From Escherichia coli (lineage in GTDB: Bacteria; Pseudomonadota; Gammaproteobacteria; Enterobacterales; Enterobacteriaceae), in NCBI RefSeq assembly GCF_003334355.1, contig NZ_QOWP01000056.1: 10,236 nucleotides of DNA; one strand, written 5' to 3'. Made by a program: the position numbers and the translations under genes. Below are positions 1 through 9,620 of this stretch, piece after piece. The notes below the pieces were generated by a model. It did no database searches and was not told where the DNA came from. It worked only from the letters and a program-made list of their open reading frames with translations. Position 1 is the first letter of the stretch; each line of letters starts with the position of its first letter.

Positions 1-158
1 TCGAAACGTACTCTCAACAGTTCGCTTAGGCATGGAAGTTTTGCGGCATTCTGGCTACACAATAACAAGGGAAGACTTACTCGTGGCTGCAACCCTACTA
101 GCTCAAAATTTATTCACACATGGTTACGCTTTGGGGAAATTATGAGGGGATCTCTCAG
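1..158 (+). mobile_element. IS10 (Tn10-type, IS4 family), terminal segment ending in its inside-end inverted repeat. The element continues past the left window edge.
   Basis: The reverse complement of 1..158 begins CTGAGAGATCCCCTCATAATTTCCCCAAAGCGTAACC, which I recognise as the IS10 inside end. The + strand carries the transposase 3' end. Confidence 0.85.
2..145 (+). CDS. IS10 transposase, C-terminal 47 codons (5' part outside the window)
   Basis: Frame 2 is open from the window edge and reads [47 protein letters not shown], with TGA at 143..145, 13 nt before the IS terminus. It is absent from the ORF track because the window truncates it. Confidence 0.8.
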
Positions 159-267
159 CACCCTGCGTGAGTTTCACGAGAAGCTGCGTGAACTGCTGAC
201 GACGCTGAATCTGAAGCTGGAACCGGCGGATGATTTTCGTGATGAACCGGTGAAGTTAACGGCGTGA
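159..267 (+). pseudogene. crl: crl 3' fragment (sigma-S-binding factor Crl) disrupted by IS10
   Basis: From 160 the frame reads [35 protein letters not shown] (TGA 265..267), the recalled C-terminus of Crl. The rest of the gene is displaced by the IS10 junction at 158/159. Confidence 0.85.
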
Positions 268-275
268 GTGAAATG

Positions 276-298
276 TGCCGGATGTATCACATCCGGCA
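276..298. terminator. Hairpin between the convergent crl and phoE genes (candidate bidirectional terminator)
   Basis: Perfect 10-bp inverted repeat TGCCGGATGT (276-285) / ACATCCGGCA (289-298) with a 3-nt loop, between the two stop codons. The flanking T-runs are weak. Confidence 0.5.
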
Positions 299-305
299 AT
301 ATCCA

Positions 306-1361
306 TTAAAACTGATAGGTCATGCCAACCGCGACAATATCATCATTATTAATATTCAATTTGTTATCGCTATCCAGTTGGTTGATTTTATAATCAACAA
401 ACGCTGACATATTTTTGTTGAAATAATACGTAGCCCCGACATCGATATAATTGACCAGATCTTCATCACCGATACCTTCAATATCTTTCCCTTTCGATAA
501 GACATAACCCAGCGATGGACGCAGACCAAAGTCAAACTGGTATTGAGCGACCGCTTCAAAGTTCTGTGTCTTATTGGCAAAGCCGCCAGTTATTGGCGTC
601 ATTTTGCGTGTTTCAGAATAAAAAGTTGCCAGATAAATATTATTGGCATCGTATTTCAGACCTGTAGCCCATGCTTCTGCACGCTTGCCTGTGCCACGGC
701 TTTGCAGGTTCTGCTCGTTGGTGCGATCTGAGTTGGTATAGGCCCCACTAATGGCGAAATCGCTGCCGCCAAAGTCATATGTCAATGACGTGCCGAAGCC
801 ATCGCCGTTTTGCTTTTTAACGTCGCGGTTTTCGTTTTTCCCTTGATATTGCAGGGTTAAGTTCAGGCCATCGATAACGCCGAAGAAGTCGGTGTTCCGA
901 TACGTCGCCAGACCGCTGGCGCGTTTGGTCATAAAGTTGTCGGTCTGCGCCGAGGAGTCGCCACCAAATTCCGGGAACATATCGGTCCAGGCTTCCACGT
1001 CATACAACGCGCCCAGGTTACGACCATAATCGAAAGAACCCAAATCTTTATATTTCAACCCGGCAAAAGCGAGACGCGTTTTTTGCTGTGCAGTATCACT
1101 CTCTGCTTTATTACCGGCAAACTCTGCTTCCCAACGACCATAACCAGTCAGTTGATCGTTAATTTGTGTTTCGCCTTTAAAACCAAAACGGATATAACTC
1201 TGGTCGCCATCTTTACTGTCGTTATCACTCATATAATGCATGGCTTTAACTTTGCCATAGACATCCAGTTTATTACCGTCTTTGTTATATATTTCTGCGG
1301 CCTGTACGGATGCAGATGCCACAATGCCCATCACCACTAATGCCAGAGTGCTCTTTTTCAT
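306..1361 (-). CDS. phoE: Outer-membrane phosphoporin PhoE
   Basis: ORF track 306..1367. It has the signal peptide [21 protein letters not shown], a porin body and the C-terminal ...VGMTYQF. I place the start at the second ATG (MKKST...), as in the known 351-aa protein. Confidence 0.97.
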
Positions 1362-1441
1362 TTTCATTCCTGATTTTAATTAACGCGCGAATATTCAGCG
1401 GGAGAGTCCCGTTGAAAACAGGAAAGTTTTTAACCTAAGAT

Positions 1442-1460
1442 TGTTAAAGATATATTACAG
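1442..1460 (-). promoter_or_regulatory. Pho box (PhoB-binding site) of the phoE promoter
   Basis: The minus strand reads CTGTAATATATCTTTAACA, close to the Pho-box consensus CTGTCATA(A/T)A(T/A)CTGTCA(C/T). It lies about 80 nt upstream of the phoE start. Confidence 0.7.
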
Positions 1461-1497
1461 ATTAATAATATTCTTAAAATGTGGTAATTTAGTAAAT

Positions 1498-1516
1498 CTG
1501 TAATAAAAGCGTAAAC
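1498..1516 (+). promoter_or_regulatory. Second Pho-box-like sequence, inverted relative to phoE
   Basis: The + strand reads CTGTAATAAAAGCGTAAAC. It resembles a Pho box but points the opposite way. An upstream inverted element is reported for phoE (recalled). Confidence 0.4.
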
Positions 1517-1648
1517 AACTGCCGCTAGGCTTGCTGATCCCGCGCAACAAAACGCCATGCTTTGCTCGCAGATAGTTGGCAACCGACGACAGTCCTGCTA
1601 AAACGTTCGTTTGATATCATTTTTCCTAAAATTGAATGGCAGAGAATC

Positions 1649-2752
1649 ATGAGTGACAGCCAGACGCTGGTGGTAAAACTCGGCACCAGTGTGCTAACAG
1701 GCGGATCGCGCCGTCTGAACCGTGCCCATATCGTTGAACTTGTTCGCCAGTGCGCGCAGTTACATGCCGCCGGGCATCGGATTGTTATTGTGACGTCGGG
1801 CGCGATCGCCGCCGGACGTGAGCACCTGGGTTACCCGGAACTGCCAGCGACTATCGCCTCGAAACAACTGCTGGCGGCGGTAGGGCAGAGTCGACTGATT
1901 CAACTGTGGGAACAGCTGTTTTCGATTTATGGCATTCACGTCGGGCAAATGCTGCTGACCCGTGCTGATATGGAAGACCGAGAACGCTTCCTGAACGCCC
2001 GCGACACCCTGCGTGCGTTGCTCGATAACAATATCGTTCCGGTAATCAATGAGAACGATGCTGTCGCTACGGCAGAGATTAAGGTCGGCGATAACGATAA
2101 CCTTTCTGCGCTGGCGGCGATTCTGGCGGGTGCCGATAAACTGTTGCTGCTGACCGATCAAAAAGGTTTGTATACCGCTGATCCGCGCAGCAATCCGCAG
2201 GCAGAACTGATTAAAGATGTTTACGGCATTGATGACGCACTGCGCGCGATTGCCGGTGACAGCGTTTCAGGCCTCGGAACTGGCGGCATGAGTACCAAAT
2301 TGCAGGCCGCTGACGTGGCTTGCCGTGCGGGTATCGACACCATTATTGCCGCGGGCAGCAAGCCGGGCGTTATTGGTGATGTGATGGAAGGCATTTCCGT
2401 CGGTACGCTGTTCCATGCCCAGGCGACTCCGCTTGAAAACCGTAAACGCTGGATTTTCGGTGCGCCGCCTGCGGGGGAAATCACGGTAGATGAAGGGGCA
2501 ACTGCCGCCATTCTGGAACGCGGCAGCTCCCTGTTGCCGAAAGGCATTAAAAGCGTGACTGGCAACTTCTCGCGTGGTGAAGTCATCCGCATTTGCAACC
2601 TCGAAGGCCGCGATATCGCCCACGGTGTCAGTCGTTACAACAGCGATGCATTACGCCGTATTGCCGGACACCACTCGCAAGAAATTGATGCAATACTGGG
2701 ATATGAATACGGCCCGGTTGCCGTTCACCGTGATGACATGATTACCCGTTAA
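1649..2752 (+). CDS. proB: Glutamate 5-kinase ProB
   Basis: ORF track 1562..2752. The known protein starts [16 protein letters not shown] at the ATG at 1649. It has an amino-acid kinase fold plus a C-terminal PUA region. The N-terminal extension in the track is unlikely. Confidence 0.97.
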
Positions 2753-2763
2753 GGAGCAGGCTG

Positions 2764-4017
2764 ATGCTGGAACAAATGGGCATTGCCGCGAAGCAAGCCT
2801 CGTATAAATTAGCGCAACTCTCCAGCCGCGAAAAAAATCGCGTACTGGAAAAAATAGCCGATGAACTGGAAGCACAAAGCGAAATCATCCTCAACGCTAA
2901 CGCGCAGGATGTTGCTGACGCGCGTGCCAACGGCCTTAGCGAAGCGATGCTTGACCGTCTGGCACTGACGCCCGCACGGCTGAAAGGCATTGCCGACGAT
3001 GTGCGCCAGGTGTGTAACCTCGCCGATCCGGTGGGGCAGGTAATCGATGGCGGCGTACTGGACAGCGGCCTGCGTCTTGAGCGTCGTCGCGTACCGCTGG
3101 GGGTTATTGGCGTGATTTATGAAGCGCGCCCGAACGTGACGGTTGATGTCGCTTCGCTGTGCCTGAAAACCGGTAATGCGGTGATCCTGCGCGGTGGCAA
3201 AGAAACGTGTCGCACTAACGCTGCAACGGTGGCGGTGATTCAGGACGCCCTGAAATCCTGCGGCTTACCGGCGGGTGCCGTGCAGGCGATTGATAATCCT
3301 GACCGTGCGCTGGTCAGTGAAATGCTGCGTATGGATAAATACATCGACATGCTGATCCCGCGTGGTGGCGCTGGTTTGCATAAACTGTGCCGTGAACAGT
3401 CGACAATCCCGGTGATCACAGGTGGTATAGGCGTATGCCATATTTACGTTGATGAAAGTGTAGAGATCGCTGAAGCATTAAAAGTGATCGTCAACGCGAA
3501 AACTCAGCGTCCGAGCACATGTAATACGGTTGAAACGTTGCTGGTGAATAAAAACATCGCCGATAGCTTCCTGCCCGCATTAAGCAAACAAATGGCGGAA
3601 AGCGGCGTGACATTACACGCAGATGCAGCTGCACTGGCGCAGTTGCAGGCAGGCCCTGCGAAGGTGGTTGCTGTTAAAGCCGAAGAGTATGACGATGAGT
3701 TTCTGTCATTAGATTTGAACGTCAAAATCGTCAGCGATCTTGACGATGCCATCGCCCATATTCGTGAACACGGCACACAACACTCCGATGCGATCCTGAC
3801 CCGCGATATGCGCAACGCCCAGCGTTTTGTTAACGAAGTGGATTCGTCCGCTGTTTACGTTAACGCCTCTACGCGTTTTACCGACGGCGGCCAGTTTGGT
3901 CTGGGTGCGGAAGTGGCGGTAAGCACACAAAAACTCCACGCGCGTGGCCCAATGGGGCTGGAAGCACTGACCACTTACAAGTGGATCGGCATTGGTGATT
4001 ACACCATTCGTGCGTAA
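2764..4017 (+). CDS. proA: Gamma-glutamyl phosphate reductase ProA
   Basis: 417-aa ORF with GGAG 8 nt upstream, 11 nt after the proB stop (proBA operon). The sequence [21 protein letters not shown]... is recognised as ProA. Confidence 0.98.
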
Positions 4018-4131: not shown

Positions 4132-4207
4132 GCCGATATAGCTCAGTTGGTAGAGCAGCGCATTCGTAATGCGAAGGTCGTAGGTTCGACTCCTATTATC
4201 GGCACCA
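4132..4207 (+). tRNA. thrW: tRNA-Thr (anticodon CGU)
   Basis: 76 nt, GCCGATATAGCTCAGTTGGTAGAGCAGCGCATTCGTAATGCGAAGGTCGTAGGTTCGACTCCTATTATCGGCACCA. It has a cloverleaf, a CGT anticodon, a GGTTCGA T-loop and an encoded CCA. Confidence 0.97.
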
Positions 4208-4372: not shown

Positions 4373-5587
4373 GTGAAACTCAATGCCCGTCAAATAGACA
4401 CAGCCAAGCCAAAAGAGAAGGCTTACAAGCTGGCCGATGGTGGCGGTTTGTATCTCTTGGTAAAACCTAATGGAGGTAAATACTGGCGACTTAAATATCG
4501 TGTAGCTGGTAAAGAGAAGCTATTGGCACTAGGTGTGTATCCTGAGGTTACTCTAGCCGATGCTCGGGCAAAACGTGAAGATGCGAAAAGAGGTATCGCT
4601 GGTGGTATCGATCCGATGGAAGCGAAACGAGAGGAAAAGATTGCCCGGGAAACGCAGTTAAACAACACCTTCAAAGATATTGCCCTTGAGTGGCACAGCA
4701 GCAAATTAAAAAAATGGTCTGCTGGTTATGCTTCAGACATCCTCGAAGCCTTCAACAAAGATGTGTTCCCTTACATTGGCAAAAAACCAATCGCCGAAAT
4801 CAAACCACTTGAACTTCTGAATGTGCTGCGGCGCATTGAGGGGCGCGGTGCTACAGAAAAAGCCAAAAAAGTGAGGCAGCGGTGCGGGGAAGTTTTCCGC
4901 TATGCAATAGTCACTGGTCGCGCAGAGTATAACCCTGCACCAGACCTTACTAGCGCGATGCAAGGCCATGAATCTAATCATTACCCTTTCCTTACAGCCA
5001 AAGAATTACCTGATTTTTTCAAGGCATTGTCCAGTTACTCAGGAAGCGCATTGGTTGTTATGGCGGCTCGTCTACTGATTATCACAGGCTTGCGGACTGG
5101 CGAACTACGTGGCGCATTATGGGATGAAATTGATTTCAACAAGGCTCTCTGGGAGATACCCGCTTCACGTATGAAAATGCGGCGGCCTCATATTGTGCCA
5201 TTGTCTGAGCAGGCTCTTTCGCTTATTGGGAAGATTAGAGAAATAACAGGCAATTACCCTCTTATGTTTCCCGGGCGCAATGATCCAAGGAAAACAATGA
5301 GTGAGGCCAGCATAAACCAAGTGTTTAAGCGCATTGGCTACGCTGGACGTGTAACTGGTCATGGGTTCCGGCACACTATGAGTACGATTTTGCATGAGCA
5401 GGGCTATAACACCGCGTGGATAGAAACGCAGCTCGCTCACGTTGATAAGAACTCAATTCGTGGCACATACAACCATGCGCAATATCTGGATGGAAGGCGG
5501 GAGATGCTTCAATGGTATGCCGACTATATGGATTCTCTCGAGCATGGCGGAAATGTGGTGCATATGGTGTTTGAAAAACACGCATGA
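4373..5587 (+). CDS. P4-family tyrosine integrase (tRNA-associated)
   Basis: 404 aa, GTG start with GGAGG at 4359-4363. The N-terminus MKLNARQIDTAKPKEKAYKLADGGGLYLLVKPNGGKYWRLKYR is typical of P4-type integrases. Catalytic contexts are GLRTGELR, HGFRHT and RGTYNHAQY. It lies directly beside thrW. Confidence 0.93.
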   Translation: MKLNARQIDTAKPKEKAYKLADGGGLYLLVKPNGGKYWRLKYRVAGKEKLLALGVYPEVTLADARAKREDAKRGIAGGIDPMEAKREEKIARETQLNNTFKDIALEWHSSKLKKWSAGYASDILEAFNKDVFPYIGKKPIAEIKPLELLNVLRRIEGRGATEKAKKVRQRCGEVFRYAIVTGRAEYNPAPDLTSAMQGHESNHYPFLTAKELPDFFKALSSYSGSALVVMAARLLIITGLRTGELRGALWDEIDFNKALWEIPASRMKMRRPHIVPLSEQALSLIGKIREITGNYPLMFPGRNDPRKTMSEASINQVFKRIGYAGRVTGHGFRHTMSTILHEQGYNTAWIETQLAHVDKNSIRGTYNHAQYLDGRREMLQWYADYMDSLEHGGNVVHMVFEKHA

Positions 5588-5635
5588 AACAACTGGACAA
5601 GTATACAGAGGTTTACTAAAGTATAGGGGAGTAGA

Positions 5636-5663
5636 TTGATAAAAACTCACAGAGGATTACTAT
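5636..5663 (+). promoter_or_regulatory. Candidate sigma-70 promoter for the spacer transcript
   Basis: TTGATA (5636-5641), a 16-nt spacer, then TACTAT (5658-5663). Transcription would start about 5670, just before the first boxB-like hairpin. Motif match only. Confidence 0.25.
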
Positions 5664-5673
5664 TTAACAGTTA

Positions 5674-5705
5674 GCCCTGGAGAAGGGCAATCGCTCTTTT
5701 AACAA
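5674..5705 (+). promoter_or_regulatory. nut-like module 1: boxB-like hairpin plus boxA-like sequence
   Basis: GCCCT-GGAGA-AGGGC (5674-5688) differs at one loop base from the recalled lambda nutL boxB GCCCTGAAGAAGGGC. After 3 nt comes CGCTCTTTTAACAA (5692-5705), which is rrn boxA TGCTCTTTAACAA with one extra T. Confidence 0.6.
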
Positions 5706-5725
5706 CGAAGATGGAATCTTCTACG

Positions 5726-5754
5726 CAGCTGAAAAGCTGGATGCTCTTTAACAG
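5726..5754 (+). promoter_or_regulatory. nut-like module 2: GNRA hairpin plus boxA
   Basis: CAGCT-GAAA-AGCTG (5726-5739). After 2 nt comes TGCTCTTTAACAG (5742-5754), a 12/13 match to rrn boxA. Confidence 0.6.
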
Positions 5755-5840
5755 CCTTTGGTGCTTTCCTGATGCAGGAAAGAATAGGGATACATGCACC
5801 TTTACAATGCATGTAATGATTCATCCATGAGGCTGCGGAT

Positions 5841-5870
5841 CGCTGACAAAGCGCAATTGCTCTTTAACAT
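5841..5870 (+). promoter_or_regulatory. nut-like module 3: P22-type boxB core plus boxA
   Basis: CGCT-GACAA-AGCG (5841-5853) is the core of the recalled P22 nutL boxB. After 4 nt comes TGCTCTTTAACAT (5858-5870), a 12/13 match to rrn boxA. Confidence 0.6.
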
Positions 5871-5952
5871 TGATGTGGGCGGGATGGTTCGTCCCGCAGT
5901 GACCGATAGATTTCTATCGGGAAACATACAATGATTCAAATATGAATCTACG

Positions 5953-5982
5953 GCGCTGACAAAGCGCAATTGCTCTCTTGCC
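5953..5982 (+). promoter_or_regulatory. nut-like module 4: hairpin identical to P22 nutL boxB plus a degenerate boxA
   Basis: GCGCT-GACAA-AGCGC (5953-5967) equals the recalled P22 boxB-left 15-mer. After 3 nt comes TGCTCTCTTGCC (5971-5982), with a GCTCT core as in lambda boxA CGCTCTTA. Confidence 0.6.
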
Positions 5983-5992
5983 TGCCCACCAT

Positions 5993-6019
5993 GCCCTGAA
6001 AAAGGGCGTTCTTTAAAAC
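5993..6019 (+). promoter_or_regulatory. nut-like module 5: hairpin identical to lambda nutR boxB plus a degenerate boxA
   Basis: GCCCT-GAAAA-AGGGC (5993-6007) equals the recalled lambda nutR boxB 15-mer. It sits 13 nt after the boxA-like TGCTCTCTT and is followed directly by GTTCTTTAAAAC (6008-6019). Confidence 0.65.
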
Positions 6020-6028
6020 TACTGGATG

Positions 6029-6046
6029 TCACGCCTAATAGCGTGA
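6029..6046 (+). promoter_or_regulatory. Hexaloop hairpin, possibly a phage-21-type boxB
   Basis: TCACGC-CTAATA-GCGTGA, 9 nt after the boxA-like 6008-6019. From memory the phage 21 boxB is a UCACC.../...GGUGA stem with a CUAACC loop. The resemblance is tentative. Confidence 0.3.
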
Positions 6047-6116
6047 TCCTGCCGAAATGCAGGGTAGCTCTACCCTTGTGGAGCAAACAAACCAAAACAA
6101 TCTGACTATCTTTTAT

Positions 6117-6152
6117 AAAAGACCGCAATATGTTTTTCATATTGTGGTCTTT
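6117..6152 (+). terminator. Strong hairpin / candidate terminator immediately upstream of alpA
   Basis: GACCGCAATATG (6121-6132), loop TTTTT, CATATTGTGGTC (6138-6149): 12 bp with one G.U pair on the + strand RNA. It is flanked by AAAA (6117-6120) and TTT (6150-6152). A G-free C/A-rich tract (6084-6103) precedes it. Confidence 0.5.
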
Positions 6153-6238
6153 GGCGTATTCGACATTTGATGCAAATAAAACTCTCGCCATTCGTTGCAG
6201 GAGGGAGTTATTGCGTCATTAGTACAGGATATTAATAA

Positions 6239-6442
6239 ATGGCTAATTACAATTCATTAATTCGTCTCTCTGAAGTTCAAAGGCGAACTGGTTATAGCAA
6301 AGCATGGATTTATCGTCTTATTAGTCAGGGGAGGTTCCCTAAACAGGTAAAAATTGGAAGTCGGGCAATTGCTTTTGTTGAGTCTGAAATAGATGAATGG
6401 ATTGAGAAGTGTATATTAGAATCTAGAGACGAGGTGGCCTGA
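6239..6442 (+). CDS. alpA: AlpA/Vis-family phage transcriptional regulator / excision factor (MerR-like HTH)
   Basis: 67 aa. LIRLSEVQRRTGYSKAWIYRLISQGRFPKQVKIGSRAIAFVESEIDEWI is the AlpA-family pattern. AGGA lies 10 nt upstream of the ATG. It is the first gene of a co-directional operon. Confidence 0.9.
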   Translation: MANYNSLIRLSEVQRRTGYSKAWIYRLISQGRFPKQVKIGSRAIAFVESEIDEWIEKCILESRDEVA

Positions 6443-7719: not shown

Positions 7720-7894
7720 GCCAACAGGAACACCACAACCACAAAAACGCTACAAAGATGCCCACGGAGCACTCGTTACTGTCGAAAGCGTGTCTCACAA
7801 CCGAGTGACGTTTTATCGCGACGGGTATCAATCGCCATGCGTACAACCGCTGGCGCGTTTCATGAAGGAGTTCGCGGAGGTTAACAAATGCTAA
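7712..7894 (+). CDS. Small DUF4222-like protein (60 aa)
   Basis: Internal ATG at 7712 of track ORF 7625..7894, preceded by GGAGGTGG (7701-7708) and overlapping the upstream stop (ATGTCTAA). YKDAHGALVTVESVSHNRVTFYRDGYQSPC resembles DUF4222 proteins (recalled). Confidence 0.7.
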   Translation: MSKPTGTPQPQKRYKDAHGALVTVESVSHNRVTFYRDGYQSPCVQPLARFMKEFAEVNKC

Positions 7895-8955
7895 CCGTCC
7901 AGAAGAAGACATTTTCACTGGCTGGTATGTCGCCAAAATCCAGCAATATGACGGCAAAGTCAGGCATTAATACAGCAGATACAAGCAAAGTTTATCATTT
8001 GCTGGTGGTCGGAACGGATGCCTTAACCATATCAGAAATCTCGGGCGATGATATTAGCATTGAGAAGGTCAGCGGCTGCGCCAGAAAATTTCTGGTCGTA
8101 GATGATGTCTTCCGCTCGTGTAGTGACTCCACAAAAACATTCGTCCACGCGCGTGACGTTAACGAAATGAGCGCGATGTACTGTGCATCTGGTGCTTCCA
8201 ATAGCGAGTTTTCGGAGTCCATAAAAAAGAGCTTGCCGTTATGCGGCAACACGGTTTATGGTTATAAGGCACCTCATAAAACGGGTGCCGGGATTGGCGT
8301 CCTGGTAAATCGAATGGCGACATATGACGCGCCGAGCGTCTTTTTTTATGTCGTAGGTCTGACTCACCCATTTTTTGGGCGTTGGTGTATAATCCAGCGC
8401 CTTTGTCAATCAATGGTGGCTCAGGCAGGGGCTTCTTCGGAAGCGCCGGTATCCATTCGAGCCGGTTACGCCAACCCTGTCTGGGCTACCACCAGCGAAA
8501 TTGGCGTTTCCGGTGGTAGCGTTACATGCTATCGAATGGAGGCTGCCACATGCTGGCTACTACCCCTACCCAAAAACCGCAATTTATCTGGATTATCGCC
8601 GCAGTTCGCCGCGATTGCCCGACAATTACCGCCAAAATTCATCATATTGCTGCCGAGTCTGAACGCGATGCTCGCCGTTCTCTGGTGCGCGATCACGTCT
8701 GCTTTTTTGCTGGTCGTATCCGCATGGAGGTGGCACATGATTAAAACCTACGATGTGCATATGGATCCCCTCGAACGCACAAGCCAGATCATCACACTGA
8801 CAGAAGTGATTAACGACATTCTGGTGAGCAACTCTCCCTCACGAGACGAAAGACTGAAGGCGTTACTCGCGATATTGGATCTCGCCGTTCGTGACGTTCA
8901 TTTCCTGCTGGAAGGTGGCGAAATGCCAGGAAAAACGGGGGCAACCAATGAATAA
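7888..8955 (+). CDS. Long open frame (355 codons). The 5' start is well supported, but the frame is probably a composite rather than one protein.
   Basis: The ATG at 7888 has GGAGG (7876-7880) at 7-nt spacing and overlaps the DUF4222 stop (ATGCTAA). The N-terminal ~120 aa look protein-like ([36 protein letters not shown], wHTH-like). The frame then crosses a terminator, a TATAAT box, a structured RNA region and the icd-like gene without meeting a stop. The true 3' end is undetermined. Confidence 0.3.
8326..8347 (+). terminator. Intrinsic-terminator-like hairpin with a T7 run
   Basis: GACGC (8326-8330), GCCGA loop, GCGTC (8336-8340), then TTTTTTT (8341-8347). Confidence 0.5.
8388..8393 (+). 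promoter_or_regulatory. Perfect -10 hexamer TATAAT upstream of the structured RNA region
   Basis: TATAAT at 8388-8393 with TG just upstream. I found no good -35, so the promoter call is weak. Confidence 0.3.
8400..8525 (+). ncRNA. Candidate c4 (P1/P7) / CI (P4)-like antisense immunity RNA; boundaries approximate
   Basis: Three hairpins. The first is GCTTC-TTCG-GAAGC (8431-8444, UUCG tetraloop). The second has a CCGG stem (8446-8449 / 8462-8465) presenting the loop ATCCATTCGA (8451-8460). The third is GCTACCACC (8485-8493) / GGTGGTAGC (8512-8520). The second loop is complementary to sites at 8309-8317 and 8531-8540. An icd-like gene follows, as in P1 immI. Confidence 0.55.
8550..8744 (+). CDS. 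Icd-like protein (host cell division inhibitor family of P1/P4-like elements)
   Basis: Internal ATG at 8550 of track ORF 8526..8744, with GGAGG (8538-8542) 7 nt upstream. [21 protein letters not shown]...[23 protein letters not shown] matches my recollection of Icd-like proteins. Confidence 0.8.
   Translation: MLATTPTQKPQFIWIIAAVRRDCPTITAKIHHIAAESERDARRSLVRDHVCFFAGRIRMEVAHD
8737..8955 (+). CDS. Small hypothetical protein (72 aa), probably an independent start within the long open frame
   Basis: The ATG at 8737 has GGAGG (8726-8730) 6 nt upstream and overlaps the icd-like 3' end by 8 nt. The sequence is helical. Confidence 0.55.
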   Translation: MIKTYDVHMDPLERTSQIITLTEVINDILVSNSPSRDERLKALLAILDLAVRDVHFLLEGGEMPGKTGATNE

Positions 8956-9142: not shown

Positions 9143-9402
9143 ATATCAACTTAATTTATCGTCATCCGTGTGAGCTGGAAATTGAATCATTGCTGGGGCG
9201 TGAAGAGCCATATCCAGACACATTCACTCCCGCAGATTGCGCGACTGAACGGCTTACCAGAGCGCGCACAGGTCTGGTTCATGTGATGAATGAGATTGTT
9301 CCCTCGGTGGGAGGGGAACAGGCGACAGTAATCAATAGCTGGCTACAAAAAGTTACCTCCCTGATAGATATCGGTTTAATCGATGTGGAGAGTGCGAAAT
9401 GA
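9139..9402 (+). CDS. Small hypothetical protein (87 aa)
   Basis: ATGA start/stop overlap with the upstream gene. Same operon. Confidence 0.7.
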   Translation: MNINLIYRHPCELEIESLLGREEPYPDTFTPADCATERLTRARTGLVHVMNEIVPSVGGEQATVINSWLQKVTSLIDIGLIDVESAK

Positions 9403-9620
9403 CCAACATCCAGCTCATTGAAGCGCAATGTCGCATCGAACAGGTTCAGACTGTTTTAGGGTTCTGGCTTGAAGGGGCCAGCCCCAGCAACAGAGACAAG
9501 TTAATGATTGGCGCGGTTATGTCACTGCTCAATGGCGTACCAGAAGCTATTCAGGAAGCGGACGAATTGTTGGGCAAATATGAGTTACAGAATCATTCAG
9601 GCGAGGCGAAACATGAATAA
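9399..9620 (+). CDS. Small hypothetical protein (73 aa)
   Basis: ATGA start/stop overlap with the upstream gene. Same operon. Confidence 0.7.
   Translation: MTNIQLIEAQCRIEQVQTVLGFWLEGASPSNRDKLMIGAVMSLLNGVPEAIQEADELLGKYELQNHSGEAKHE

Follow-up and report, generated by a model that had tools for sequence, protein, structure and literature searches.

The stretch of Escherichia coli DNA considered here (10,236 nucleotides of contig NZ_QOWP01000056.1, assembly GCF_003334355.1; hereafter the window) carries phoE, proB, proA, tRNA-Thr, a tyrosine integrase gene (int), a 651-nt non-coding spacer (5588-6238), alpA, an open reading frame (ORF) of 143 aa, an AntA antirepressor gene and an Ash-family gene, in that order. 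The island is a phage-inducible chromosomal island (PICI) of the EcCIMP1 type, inserted at tRNA-Thr, and our subject is the spacer between int and alpA, the leader of the gene for the island's master activator. Packed into this leader are boxA and boxB elements of the kinds that form phage nut sites, on which phage N proteins act.

At one end of the island int and alpA point the same way; a Bro/antirepressor zone that includes immunity RNAs follows, as does a primase, the set of virion genes is incomplete, and the whole matches the four-zone organisation described for Gram-negative PICIs (PMC10111431). Within the window, Pfam identifies int, AlpA, AntA and Ash, and Rfam identifies the isrK and C4 RNAs; a copy in E. 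coli 510016, 99.7% identical, runs on into a TOPRIM/DUF927 primase, P22-like DNA-ejection proteins and PerC. Its place in the EcCIMP1 lineage is seen in the shared tRNA-Thr site beside proA and in AlpA WP_000035054.1, which close relatives and strain MP1 encode; DNA identity to MP1 is 98% on either side of the spacer. The alpA gene that an initial annotation, made from the letters alone, had placed at 6239 is present there and encodes a Pfam Phage_AlpA protein. A search of the window's island ORFs for an N-like protein returned nothing.

Elements of the int-alpA leader

All boxA and boxB elements of the leader lie on the plus strand, that of alpA (Table 1). Chance was estimated from 300 dinucleotide-preserving shuffles of the window. 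The observed counts of the lambda and P22 boxB classes were matched in none of them (0/300 each), and neither was the composite unit of boxA, spacer and CUAA hexaloop (0/300), while the boxA count was reached once (1/300) and an equally good match to the HK620-type 16-mer arose in 3/300. The rrn-consensus boxA GCTCTTTAACA is present in two exact copies (5743-5753 and 5859-5869) and in four or five variants, with those at 5692-5705, 5971-5982, 6008-6018 and 5658-5669 all on the plus strand. All the features that the initial annotation had listed exist where it placed them, and its list fell short by one boxB (6048-6063) and one boxA-like element (5658-5669).

Stem and loop together match the site of a known N protein for three types: lambda, P22/933W and HK620. 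The boxB4 sequence GCGCTGACAAAGCGC is the boxB within the annotated nutL of 933W-type phages, an exact P22/933W boxB whose GACAA loop is the loop of the P22 N-boxB complex. Hairpin X has the nutL hexaloop of phages 611R6, IME10, HF4s and ECP1 and differs from their sites by one compensatory stem pair; in those phages nutL (GGCTCTTTAACA, 11 nt, then UCCCGC-CGAAAU-GCGGGA) lies upstream of an HK620-type N starting MTVVITYLADDNARNRRRARRQ. For h6, the hairpin of the unit that we call U6, the likeness to phi21 is one of similarity only, CUAAUA versus the phi21 loop CUAACC, a sequence given in PMC12550061 and present in the nut sites of phages Kapi1 and 06-3462. U6 and Kapi1 nutR agree at 28/41 aligned positions, and one stem pair is swapped from C-G to G-C in compensation. 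In IMG/VR the exact 16-mer of boxB1 matches only unrelated coding sequences, so its loop variant GGAGA is without a known phage link.

A boxA stands 5' of a boxB at a distance of 10 nt in U6, 10 nt in the boxA4'-boxB5 pair (where the boxA is degenerate) and 8 nt in the boxA2'-boxB3 pair of the 427-nt natural variants. A0 and boxB1 are separated by 4 nt, and for the remaining boxBs the nearest boxA lies downstream. Against shuffles, the folding of the leader gives z = -11.5 on the plus strand and -7.2 on the minus strand, and the listed hairpins are all recovered in the minimum-energy or the centroid fold. Hairpins X (6048-6063) and h7 (6061-6076) cannot form together; h7 is favoured in the minimum-energy fold, and N binding could switch the structure.

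An Rfam scan at E values up to 10 returned no described RNA family in the leader, and elsewhere in the window only tRNA-Thr, isrK and C4. The same scan gave no leader match to an HK022 put-like RNA, the presence of a put family in Rfam not being established. BLAST of 5664-5922 against 50,697 phage records produced zero matches, and exact searches of IMG/VR with h3, h4 and h6 retrieved only this island family plus one chance match (L111).

RefSeq places a hypothetical 129-aa ORF over the array on the minus strand. We rejected it as a gene, Pfam and PHROG being blank and most natural variants lacking it. Strain MP1 has a small 'UvrB-like' leader ORF, EcCIMP1_002, which was considered a possible accessory gene, tested and found to have no function (PMC11773190). 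Both seem to be artefacts that arose when a leader of structured, non-coding sequence was annotated.

Table 1. Features of the window, from tRNA-Thr to alpA (positions count from the first nucleotide of the window)
Feature	Position	Strand	Sequence and remarks	Basis
tRNA-Thr	4132-4207	+	Island integration site; att core TCCTATTATC at the tRNA 3' end	ARAGORN, Rfam; site and core as in EcCIMP1 (PMC11773190)
int	4373-5587	+	Island tyrosine recombinase, reads toward the leader	Pfam Phage_integrase, Arm-DNA-bind_3, Phage_int_M
P1	5594-5622	+	Promoter candidate TGGACA-17-TAAAGT	Scan; invariant in 11 distinct natural leaders; Pantoea counterpart TGGAAA-17-TATATT
P2	5636-5663	+	Promoter candidate TTGATA-16-TACTAT; tandem duplicate of the P1 segment	Scan, repeat D8
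A0	5658-5669	+	boxA-like TACTATTTAACA (TGCTATTTAACA in most variants), 4 nt ahead of boxB1; overlaps the P2 -10	Repeat D4
boxB1	5674-5688	+	GCCCTGGAGAAGGGC / GCCCUGGAGAAGGGC; lambda nutL boxB with one loop substitution	Sequence match, shuffles
boxA1	5692-5705	+	CGCTCTTTTAACAA	
h1	5707-5721	+	Corresponds to the spacer hairpin of 933W/H-19B; A-U in some variants is G-C in others, both arms changing in compensation	Fold, variants, repeat D6
boxB2	5726-5739	+	CAGCUGAAAAGCUG, GAAA loop; P22-type CGCUGACAAAGCG at the same position in other variants	
boxA2	5742-5753	+	TGCTCTTTAACA, rrn consensus	
h2	5764-5782	+	Hairpin 10 nt past boxA2; only in the 651-nt form	Fold, variants
h3	5791-5815	+	Hairpin; only in the 651-nt form	Fold, variants
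129-aa ORF	5802-6191	-	RefSeq hypothetical, probably spurious	No Pfam/PHROG match; mostly deleted in the common 427-nt leader
boxB3	5840-5854	+	TCGCTGACAAAGCGC / uCGCUGACAAAGCGC; P22/933W type, 14/15 copy; within the older paralogue (5810-5863) of a 933W-type nut unit	Repeats D1, D3
boxA3 and spacer	5858-5875	+	TGCTCTTTAACATTGATG	
h4	5879-5897	+	Hairpin 9 nt past boxA3; candidate boxB for some N family not yet sampled	Fold
h5	5903-5920	+	Hairpin	Fold
Captured nutL	5923-5970	+	933W/H-19B type; spacer hairpin 5933-5948 and boxB4 5953-5967 (GCGCTGACAAAGCGC / GCGCUGACAAAGCGC)	94-98% identity
boxA4'	5971-5982	+	Degenerate boxA TGCTCTCTTGCC, 10 nt ahead of boxB5	
boxB5	5993-6007	+	GCCCTGAAAAAGGGC / GCCCUGAAAAAGGGC; identical to the annotated lambda nutR boxB	Sequence match, shuffles
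U6	6008-6046	+	Canonical nut unit, phi21-like: boxA GTTCTTTAAAA (6008-6018), 10-nt spacer, h6 (6029-6046) UCACGC-CUAAUA-GCGUGA	Invariant in all variants
X	6048-6063	+	Hairpin CCUGC-CGAAAU-GCAGG, HK620-type boxB; overlaps h7	Hexaloop match, shuffles
h7	6061-6076	+	Hairpin, mutually exclusive with X	Fold
G-free tract	6084-6103	+	C/A-rich, possible Rho utilisation (rut) site; like tracts follow phage nutR boxBs	Resemblance to those tracts
Palindrome	6118-6152	+	15-bp hairpin, -20.8 kcal/mol, containing ACCGCAATA; possible weak terminator or protein operator	Covariation in Pantoea
alpA	6239-6442	+	Island master activator; product matches EcCIMP1 AlpA WP_000035054.1	Pfam Phage_AlpA; PMC11773190

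Origin and natural variation of the units

The provenance of one unit is directly readable, since 5923-5970 is 94-98% identical to the pL-N leader of 933W/H-19B-type prophages, where it is annotated as nutL, and it keeps the orientation that it has in the phage, toward the downstream gene. Repeat analysis identifies 5810-5863 and 5707-5739 as older, diverged copies of a 933W-type unit (spacer hairpin, TACG, boxB, AAT, boxA). The boxA3 region contains GCTCTTTAACATTGATG, identical to the nutL boxA and spacer of both phi21-type and HK620-type phages. The 933W nutL copy, its paralogues and the boxA-spacer shared with phi21-type and HK620-type phages together indicate that the array was built from phage nut modules.

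The leader is matched in 663/5426 complete E. coli genomes (~12%), of which only 29 have the full 651-nt form. We compared 24 leaders from genomes, IMG/VR and metagenomes, among which 11 sequences are distinct; their lengths fall into four classes, of 651, 427, 428 and 391 nt. Hardly anything changes in the flanks (5588-5700 and 6008-6238). Variation falls within the array, where whole units have been deleted between repeats of boxB or boxA and single units have been altered, so that units are gained, lost and swapped. The second boxB, for instance, reads CAGCUGAAAAGCUG, CUGCUGAAAAGCGG or the P22-type CGCUGACAAAGCG. Hairpins h6 and X, the boxB-like hairpins closest to alpA, are invariant in 24/24 leaders. 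The 427-nt form, that of EcCIMP1, amounts to four canonical units: a lambda-like unit, h1/boxB2, a P22-type boxB 8 nt from its boxA, and the phi21-like unit followed by the HK620-type hairpin.

In one island, that of Escherichia sp. MOD1-EC7003, int, orf143 and antA are 97.8%, 98.6% and 99.6% identical to the window and AlpA only 76%, and a 1.25-kb segment (1749-3003) encoding an acidic 293-aa protein replaces the nut array. The breakpoints correspond to window positions 5563/5564 and 6253/6254. Because another segment occupies the array position in this island, the leader is an exchangeable module.

Beyond E. coli we examined 80 loci encoding AlpA relatives in other species. Spacers at 78 of them, most of ~110-330 nt, are without boxA or recognisable boxB. 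The other two have long leaders, of 740 nt in Pantoea septica and 1167 nt in Providencia alcalifaciens, each with four boxA-like elements on the plus strand and none on the minus strand, interleaved with hairpins. These two islands are syntenic and EcCIMP1-like (int 62-63%, AlpA 73-75% and orf143 52-63% identical); their array hairpins differ from those of E. coli, and some have GNRNA or GAAA loops. Providencia has an int terminator and a TTGACT-16-TAATAT promoter match (9/12) ahead of the array, and Pantoea has a promoter candidate, TGGAAA-17-TATATT, at the position equivalent to P1. In both, terminator-like hairpins stand just ahead of the alpA ribosome-binding site, and in Pantoea, where the terminator is clear, one of them is a stem followed by seven U (-20.4 kcal/mol). 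The 6118-6152 hairpin is kept in Pantoea with covarying changes.

Two observations concern relatives without an array. In E. coli CFT073, the int-alpA spacer of EcCICFT073 (9161-9525) has no lambda or P22 boxB; it contains six tandem 10-nt repeats ending in ACAAC, the sequence CACTCTTAAAAA resembling lambda nutL boxA, a 12-bp hairpin and, directly before alpA, a long C-rich, G-poor tract that is rut-like in look. In many short-spacer AlpA relatives (loci L007, L014, L005, L019, L012 and L035), the last ~40 nt before alpA share CTCGTAAACCGCAATAGACGTTACGAGGTAAATATG, which forms a hairpin that covers the Shine-Dalgarno sequence with its 3' arm and has ACCGCAATA in its loop. The motif ACCGCAATA also makes up both arms of the inverted repeat at 6118-6152, and it may serve AlpA as an operator or act in translational control.

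Helper induction and competing explanations

Published work on the sister island EcCIMP1 ties induction to the leader. An alpA-lux fusion spanning -449..+50 was strongly induced when the helper prophage Kapi1 was induced by mitomycin C, was not induced by mitomycin C in a non-lysogen, and was induced, at a lower level, in a delta-alpA strain (PMC11773190). That reporter fragment comprises the entire 427-nt leader and 22 nt of int. Activation through the leader that depends on the helper and is independent of AlpA (PMC11773190) fits an N-responsive leader in EcCIMP1. The Kapi1 protein Kapi1_020 is a phi21-type N, 80% identical to lambda imm21 N and 99% to the annotated N of mEp235, and Kapi1 nutL and nutR have CUAACC hexaloop boxBs behind GCTCTTTAACA. 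The EcCIMP1 leader has a single phi21-like element, its copy of the invariant unit at 6008-6046, and to judge by sequence likeness Kapi1 N may bind its hairpin h6.

We favour, with moderate confidence, the view that the int-alpA leader is a modular nut-site array acting as an N-dependent antitermination sensor of helper phage that drives alpA, which was the first hypothesis of the initial annotation. In layout the leader is like an N reporter, in the order promoter, nut, terminator and gene. A weak constitutive promoter just past int (P1 and/or P2), possibly joined by read-through from int, would yield an untranslated and highly structured RNA of ~600 nt. In cells free of phage, transcription would halt before alpA, the candidate causes being Rho at the G-poor tract, the 6118-6152 hairpin, or both. 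A lytic lambdoid or P22-like phage would then make N, which would bind a matching boxB on the nascent island RNA and, with NusA, with NusB/S10 on an adjacent consensus boxA and with NusG, would render RNA polymerase resistant to termination. Transcription of alpA would follow, and AlpA would amplify its own expression, commit the island to its lytic programme and start excision and replication. We infer the role of N as inducer, the transcription start and stop sites and the identity of the terminator, and P1 may be a functional promoter.

The order that the initial annotation had proposed, from promoter through a multi-specificity nut array to alpA, holds and is strengthened by the 933W nutL copy and by the phi21-like and HK620-type sites. 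With boxBs of several N families (lambda, P22/933W, phi21-like and HK620-type), the island could respond to helpers that have like virion modules and mosaic early regions. P22-like phages are the likely helpers because the island carries P22-like ejection genes, and such phages carry at least three N types (phi21-type, HK620-type and P22-type) in otherwise similar genomes, so several specificities in one leader make sense. We put at about even chances the further proposition that EcCIMP1-type satellites detect helpers by the N antiterminator of the helper itself, the alpA leader being an evolvable barcode of captured nut sites from at least four N families, with sites gained, lost and exchanged through recombination with phages, so that any P22-like or lambdoid phage could induce the island irrespective of its mosaic early region.

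Several findings weigh against an N sensor. Promoter matches in the E. coli leader are at chance level (3 found, 3.1 expected), and the promoter at 5636-5663 that the initial annotation had singled out is not distinctive, its -10 reading TGCTAT in most natural variants. The stretch at 6084-6103 is indeed free of G, as had been noted, but its assignment as a rut site is weak: the tract is short (20 nt, within ~40 nt of G-poor sequence) and its excess of C over G only moderate (top ~5% of the window at 40 nt, ~8-15% at 78 nt). The hairpin proposed before alpA is likewise real, but it is not a canonical intrinsic terminator, because its stem is A+U-rich and is followed on the plus strand by UUUGGCG rather than a U tract; a terminator scan made no call there and found no canonical intrinsic terminator between array and alpA in E. 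coli. Binding by Kapi1 N is uncertain, since the h6 loop differs from CUAACC at two of six bases. The boxB2 loop has only four bases, and the boxB1 stem is mutated in two variants. Most island boxBs have a boxA close downstream and not upstream, an arrangement seen in 0/156 phage lambda-type nut sites, and some units may therefore fail to assemble a normal N complex. A very close relative, MOD1-EC7003, has a gene-carrying segment where the array would be. Finally, EcCICFT073, which is induced by lambda and phi80, is without a recognisable boxB; with 78/80 AlpA relatives in the same position, N sensing is not the general induction route of Gram-negative PICIs. We accordingly rejected nut arrays as a general feature upstream of alpA.

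The order of boxB and boxA bears on a different reading. Of 156 lambda-type boxBs from IMG/VR, 72 have a boxA in the 30 nt upstream and 0 have one in the 25 nt downstream. Among the 120 IMG/VR loci listed with a lambda boxB no AlpA neighbour occurs, and the composite of boxB directly followed by boxA is, within IMG/VR, confined to this island family. The antiterminator of rrn operons has the order boxB-boxA-boxC. The boxAs could recruit NusB/S10/NusG (and SuhB) constitutively and shield the int-alpA transcript from Rho independently of N, like those of rRNA operons and some CRISPR arrays, the boxBs being passengers: the leader is long and untranslated, TGCTCTTTAACA is exact to the rrn consensus twice, and the close boxB-then-boxA order is that of rrn and not that of phages. 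We regard this reading as improbable. It would make alpA constitutive, yet EcCIMP1 alpA is silent without helper, and it leaves unexplained the exact lambda and P22 loops, the captured 933W nutL, the phi21-like and HK620-type hairpins and the swaps of boxB between variants. The juxtaposition arises from the interleaving of units, by which each boxA also has a hairpin 1-10 nt downstream.

The number of elements per RNA, five to eight boxBs and several boxAs that are of the rrn consensus and not of the weaker lambda form, would also suit a decoy, the second hypothesis of the initial annotation, in which the leader RNA titrates phage N and NusB/S10, delays delayed-early expression and protects the cell or lysogen, with the adjacency to alpA incidental or the decoy role secondary to sensing. 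Friedman and colleagues reportedly found in 1990 (in Genes Dev) that a consensus boxA, when transcribed, inhibits the action of lambda N and competes for a factor of the host. EcCIMP1 adds to the superinfection immunity of Kapi1 lysogens, as a decoy would, but Kapi1 titres after induction are unaffected by it (PMC11773190). With promoter candidates this weak, one copy of the island would probably yield too little RNA for the titration of N; in three genera the array stands immediately before alpA, always in the orientation of that gene, and is followed by terminator-like hairpins; and the helper-dependent reporter response maps to the leader fragment. We therefore think a decoy quite unlikely as the main role.

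Lastly, another helper factor (an activator, an antirepressor or Q-modified read-through) could act at the promoter or at the 6118-6152 palindrome, leaving the array as a by-product, with little function, of repeated recombination of the island with phage early regions. The induction of EcCICFT073 by lambda and phi80, the other segment in the array position of a near-identical island and the location of the strain 510016 island inside a prophage downstream of Q all speak for this, as does the look of the 6118-6152 repeat and ACCGCAATA, which resemble a protein operator and recur near alpA in array-less relatives. Relics, however, would not keep co-orientation, compensated stems, exact loops, boxA interleaving and recurrence in three genera, and the two boxB-like hairpins closest to alpA are invariant. 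We hold such a factor to be unlikely, if somewhat easier to entertain than a decoy.

Other observations concern the wider island and its helpers. In E. coli 510016 (NZ_CP025851.1), the copy of the island at ~15600-32000, whose 99.7% identity begins at the att core, is not at tRNA-Thr; it sits in a truncated DNA-methyltransferase gene of a prophage, ~2.6 kb downstream of the prophage Q antiterminator gene. In this helper-embedded layout, Q-modified late transcription could read into int, leader and alpA. Close behind its Q gene, Kapi1 has genes for tRNA-Asn and tRNA-Thr (15571-15726), and phage-borne tRNA-Thr genes might act as secondary attachment sites for an island that integrates at the tRNA-Thr 3' end. 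Within the Ash-family ORF of the window (7888-8955), isrK (67 bits, 8269-8346) and C4 antisense RNA (79.5 bits, 8409-8496) exceed the Rfam gathering scores, and a weak a1/b1 target match lies nearby at 8256-8308. Together isrK and C4 in the Bro zone look like a P1/P7-type immunity RNA system, as for the PICIs of PMC10111431.

Known systems and implications

The closest counterparts of the leader are the lambda early operons, pR-nutR-tR1-cII and pL-nutL-N, with their N-dependent processive antitermination. In both, a promoter (in the island a candidate one) precedes boxA and boxB on the nascent RNA, a C/A-rich and G-poor tract and a regulated gene; island boxBs are identical or near-identical to those of nutR and nutL. 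The island differs in being a satellite with no N gene found, in having many tandem nut units of differing specificity, and in its rrn-consensus boxAs, interleaved and placed closely after each boxB. Among other phages, the nutL of 933W/H-19B has a near-identical 48-nt copy in the island, and the nut sites of phi21-type (Kapi1, 06-3462) and HK620-type phages (611R6, IME10, HF4s, ECP1) share with it the boxA and spacer GCTCTTTAACATTGATG and the hairpin architecture, with the HK620 loop the same. Unlike any of these, the island combines the types in one leader; the last two bases of its phi21-like loop differ, and its HK620-type stem has one compensatory change.

EcCIMP1 agrees with the window in att site, AlpA protein, the order int, leader, alpA, orf143, antA and helper-dependent alpA, and its leader is the 427-nt form of the array; in close relatives an ash-family gene follows further on where annotation extends so far. 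Most other Gram-negative PICIs, EcCICFT073 included, are without an array. The rrn antiterminator and the boxA leaders of CRISPR arrays and suhB likewise have TGCTCTTTAACA as their consensus boxA, with a hairpin directly on its 5' side, whereas the island hairpins carry phage-specific N-binding loops, in multiple copies, on a mobile element and before a gene that is silent until phage induction.

Elements that exploit a specific early product or signal of another phage are familiar. The Nun protein of HK022 uses lambda boxB and terminates transcription on the phage genome, and P4, activated by P2 Cox and Ogr, and SaPIs, whose Stl is derepressed by phage proteins, sense their helpers through DNA-binding activators or repressors. 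As is proposed for the island, a competing or parasitic element is the beneficiary in all three; the proposed receptor here differs in being RNA on the satellite's own transcript.

N/nut antitermination is classic, but its co-option by a satellite as a multi-specificity array before a master activator appears undescribed. Full-text searches of the literature on PICIs and satellites together with antitermination, nut or boxB, which largely covered journals outside subscription, returned nothing relevant. The EcCIMP1 paper (Pick, Stadel and Raivio 2025, PMC11773190) names no inducer or mechanism, and the words antitermination, nut and boxB do not occur in it. The founding paper on Gram-negative PICIs (Fillol-Salom 2018, PMC6092414) describes the phage-encoded inducer as "under study" and leaves nut, boxB and antitermination unmentioned.

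How Gram-negative PICIs sense their helpers has been an open question since 2018, and the leader supplies a specific candidate: phage N acting on identifiable RNA sites. If this is true, the long-sought phage-encoded inducer would be identified for one Gram-negative PICI family, and the island would be the first satellite to sense its helper with a receptor made of RNA, carried on the satellite's transcript, instead of a repressor or activator protein. Communication between satellites and helpers would gain a new mode, the co-opting of a processive antitermination signal. It would explain a broad helper range despite phage mosaicism, and such arrays would be natural multiplexed RNA sensors of orthogonal RNA-binding peptides, useful to synthetic biology. 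Helper range would become predictable from sequence, and the finding would show how islands with defence and virulence regulators are mobilised.

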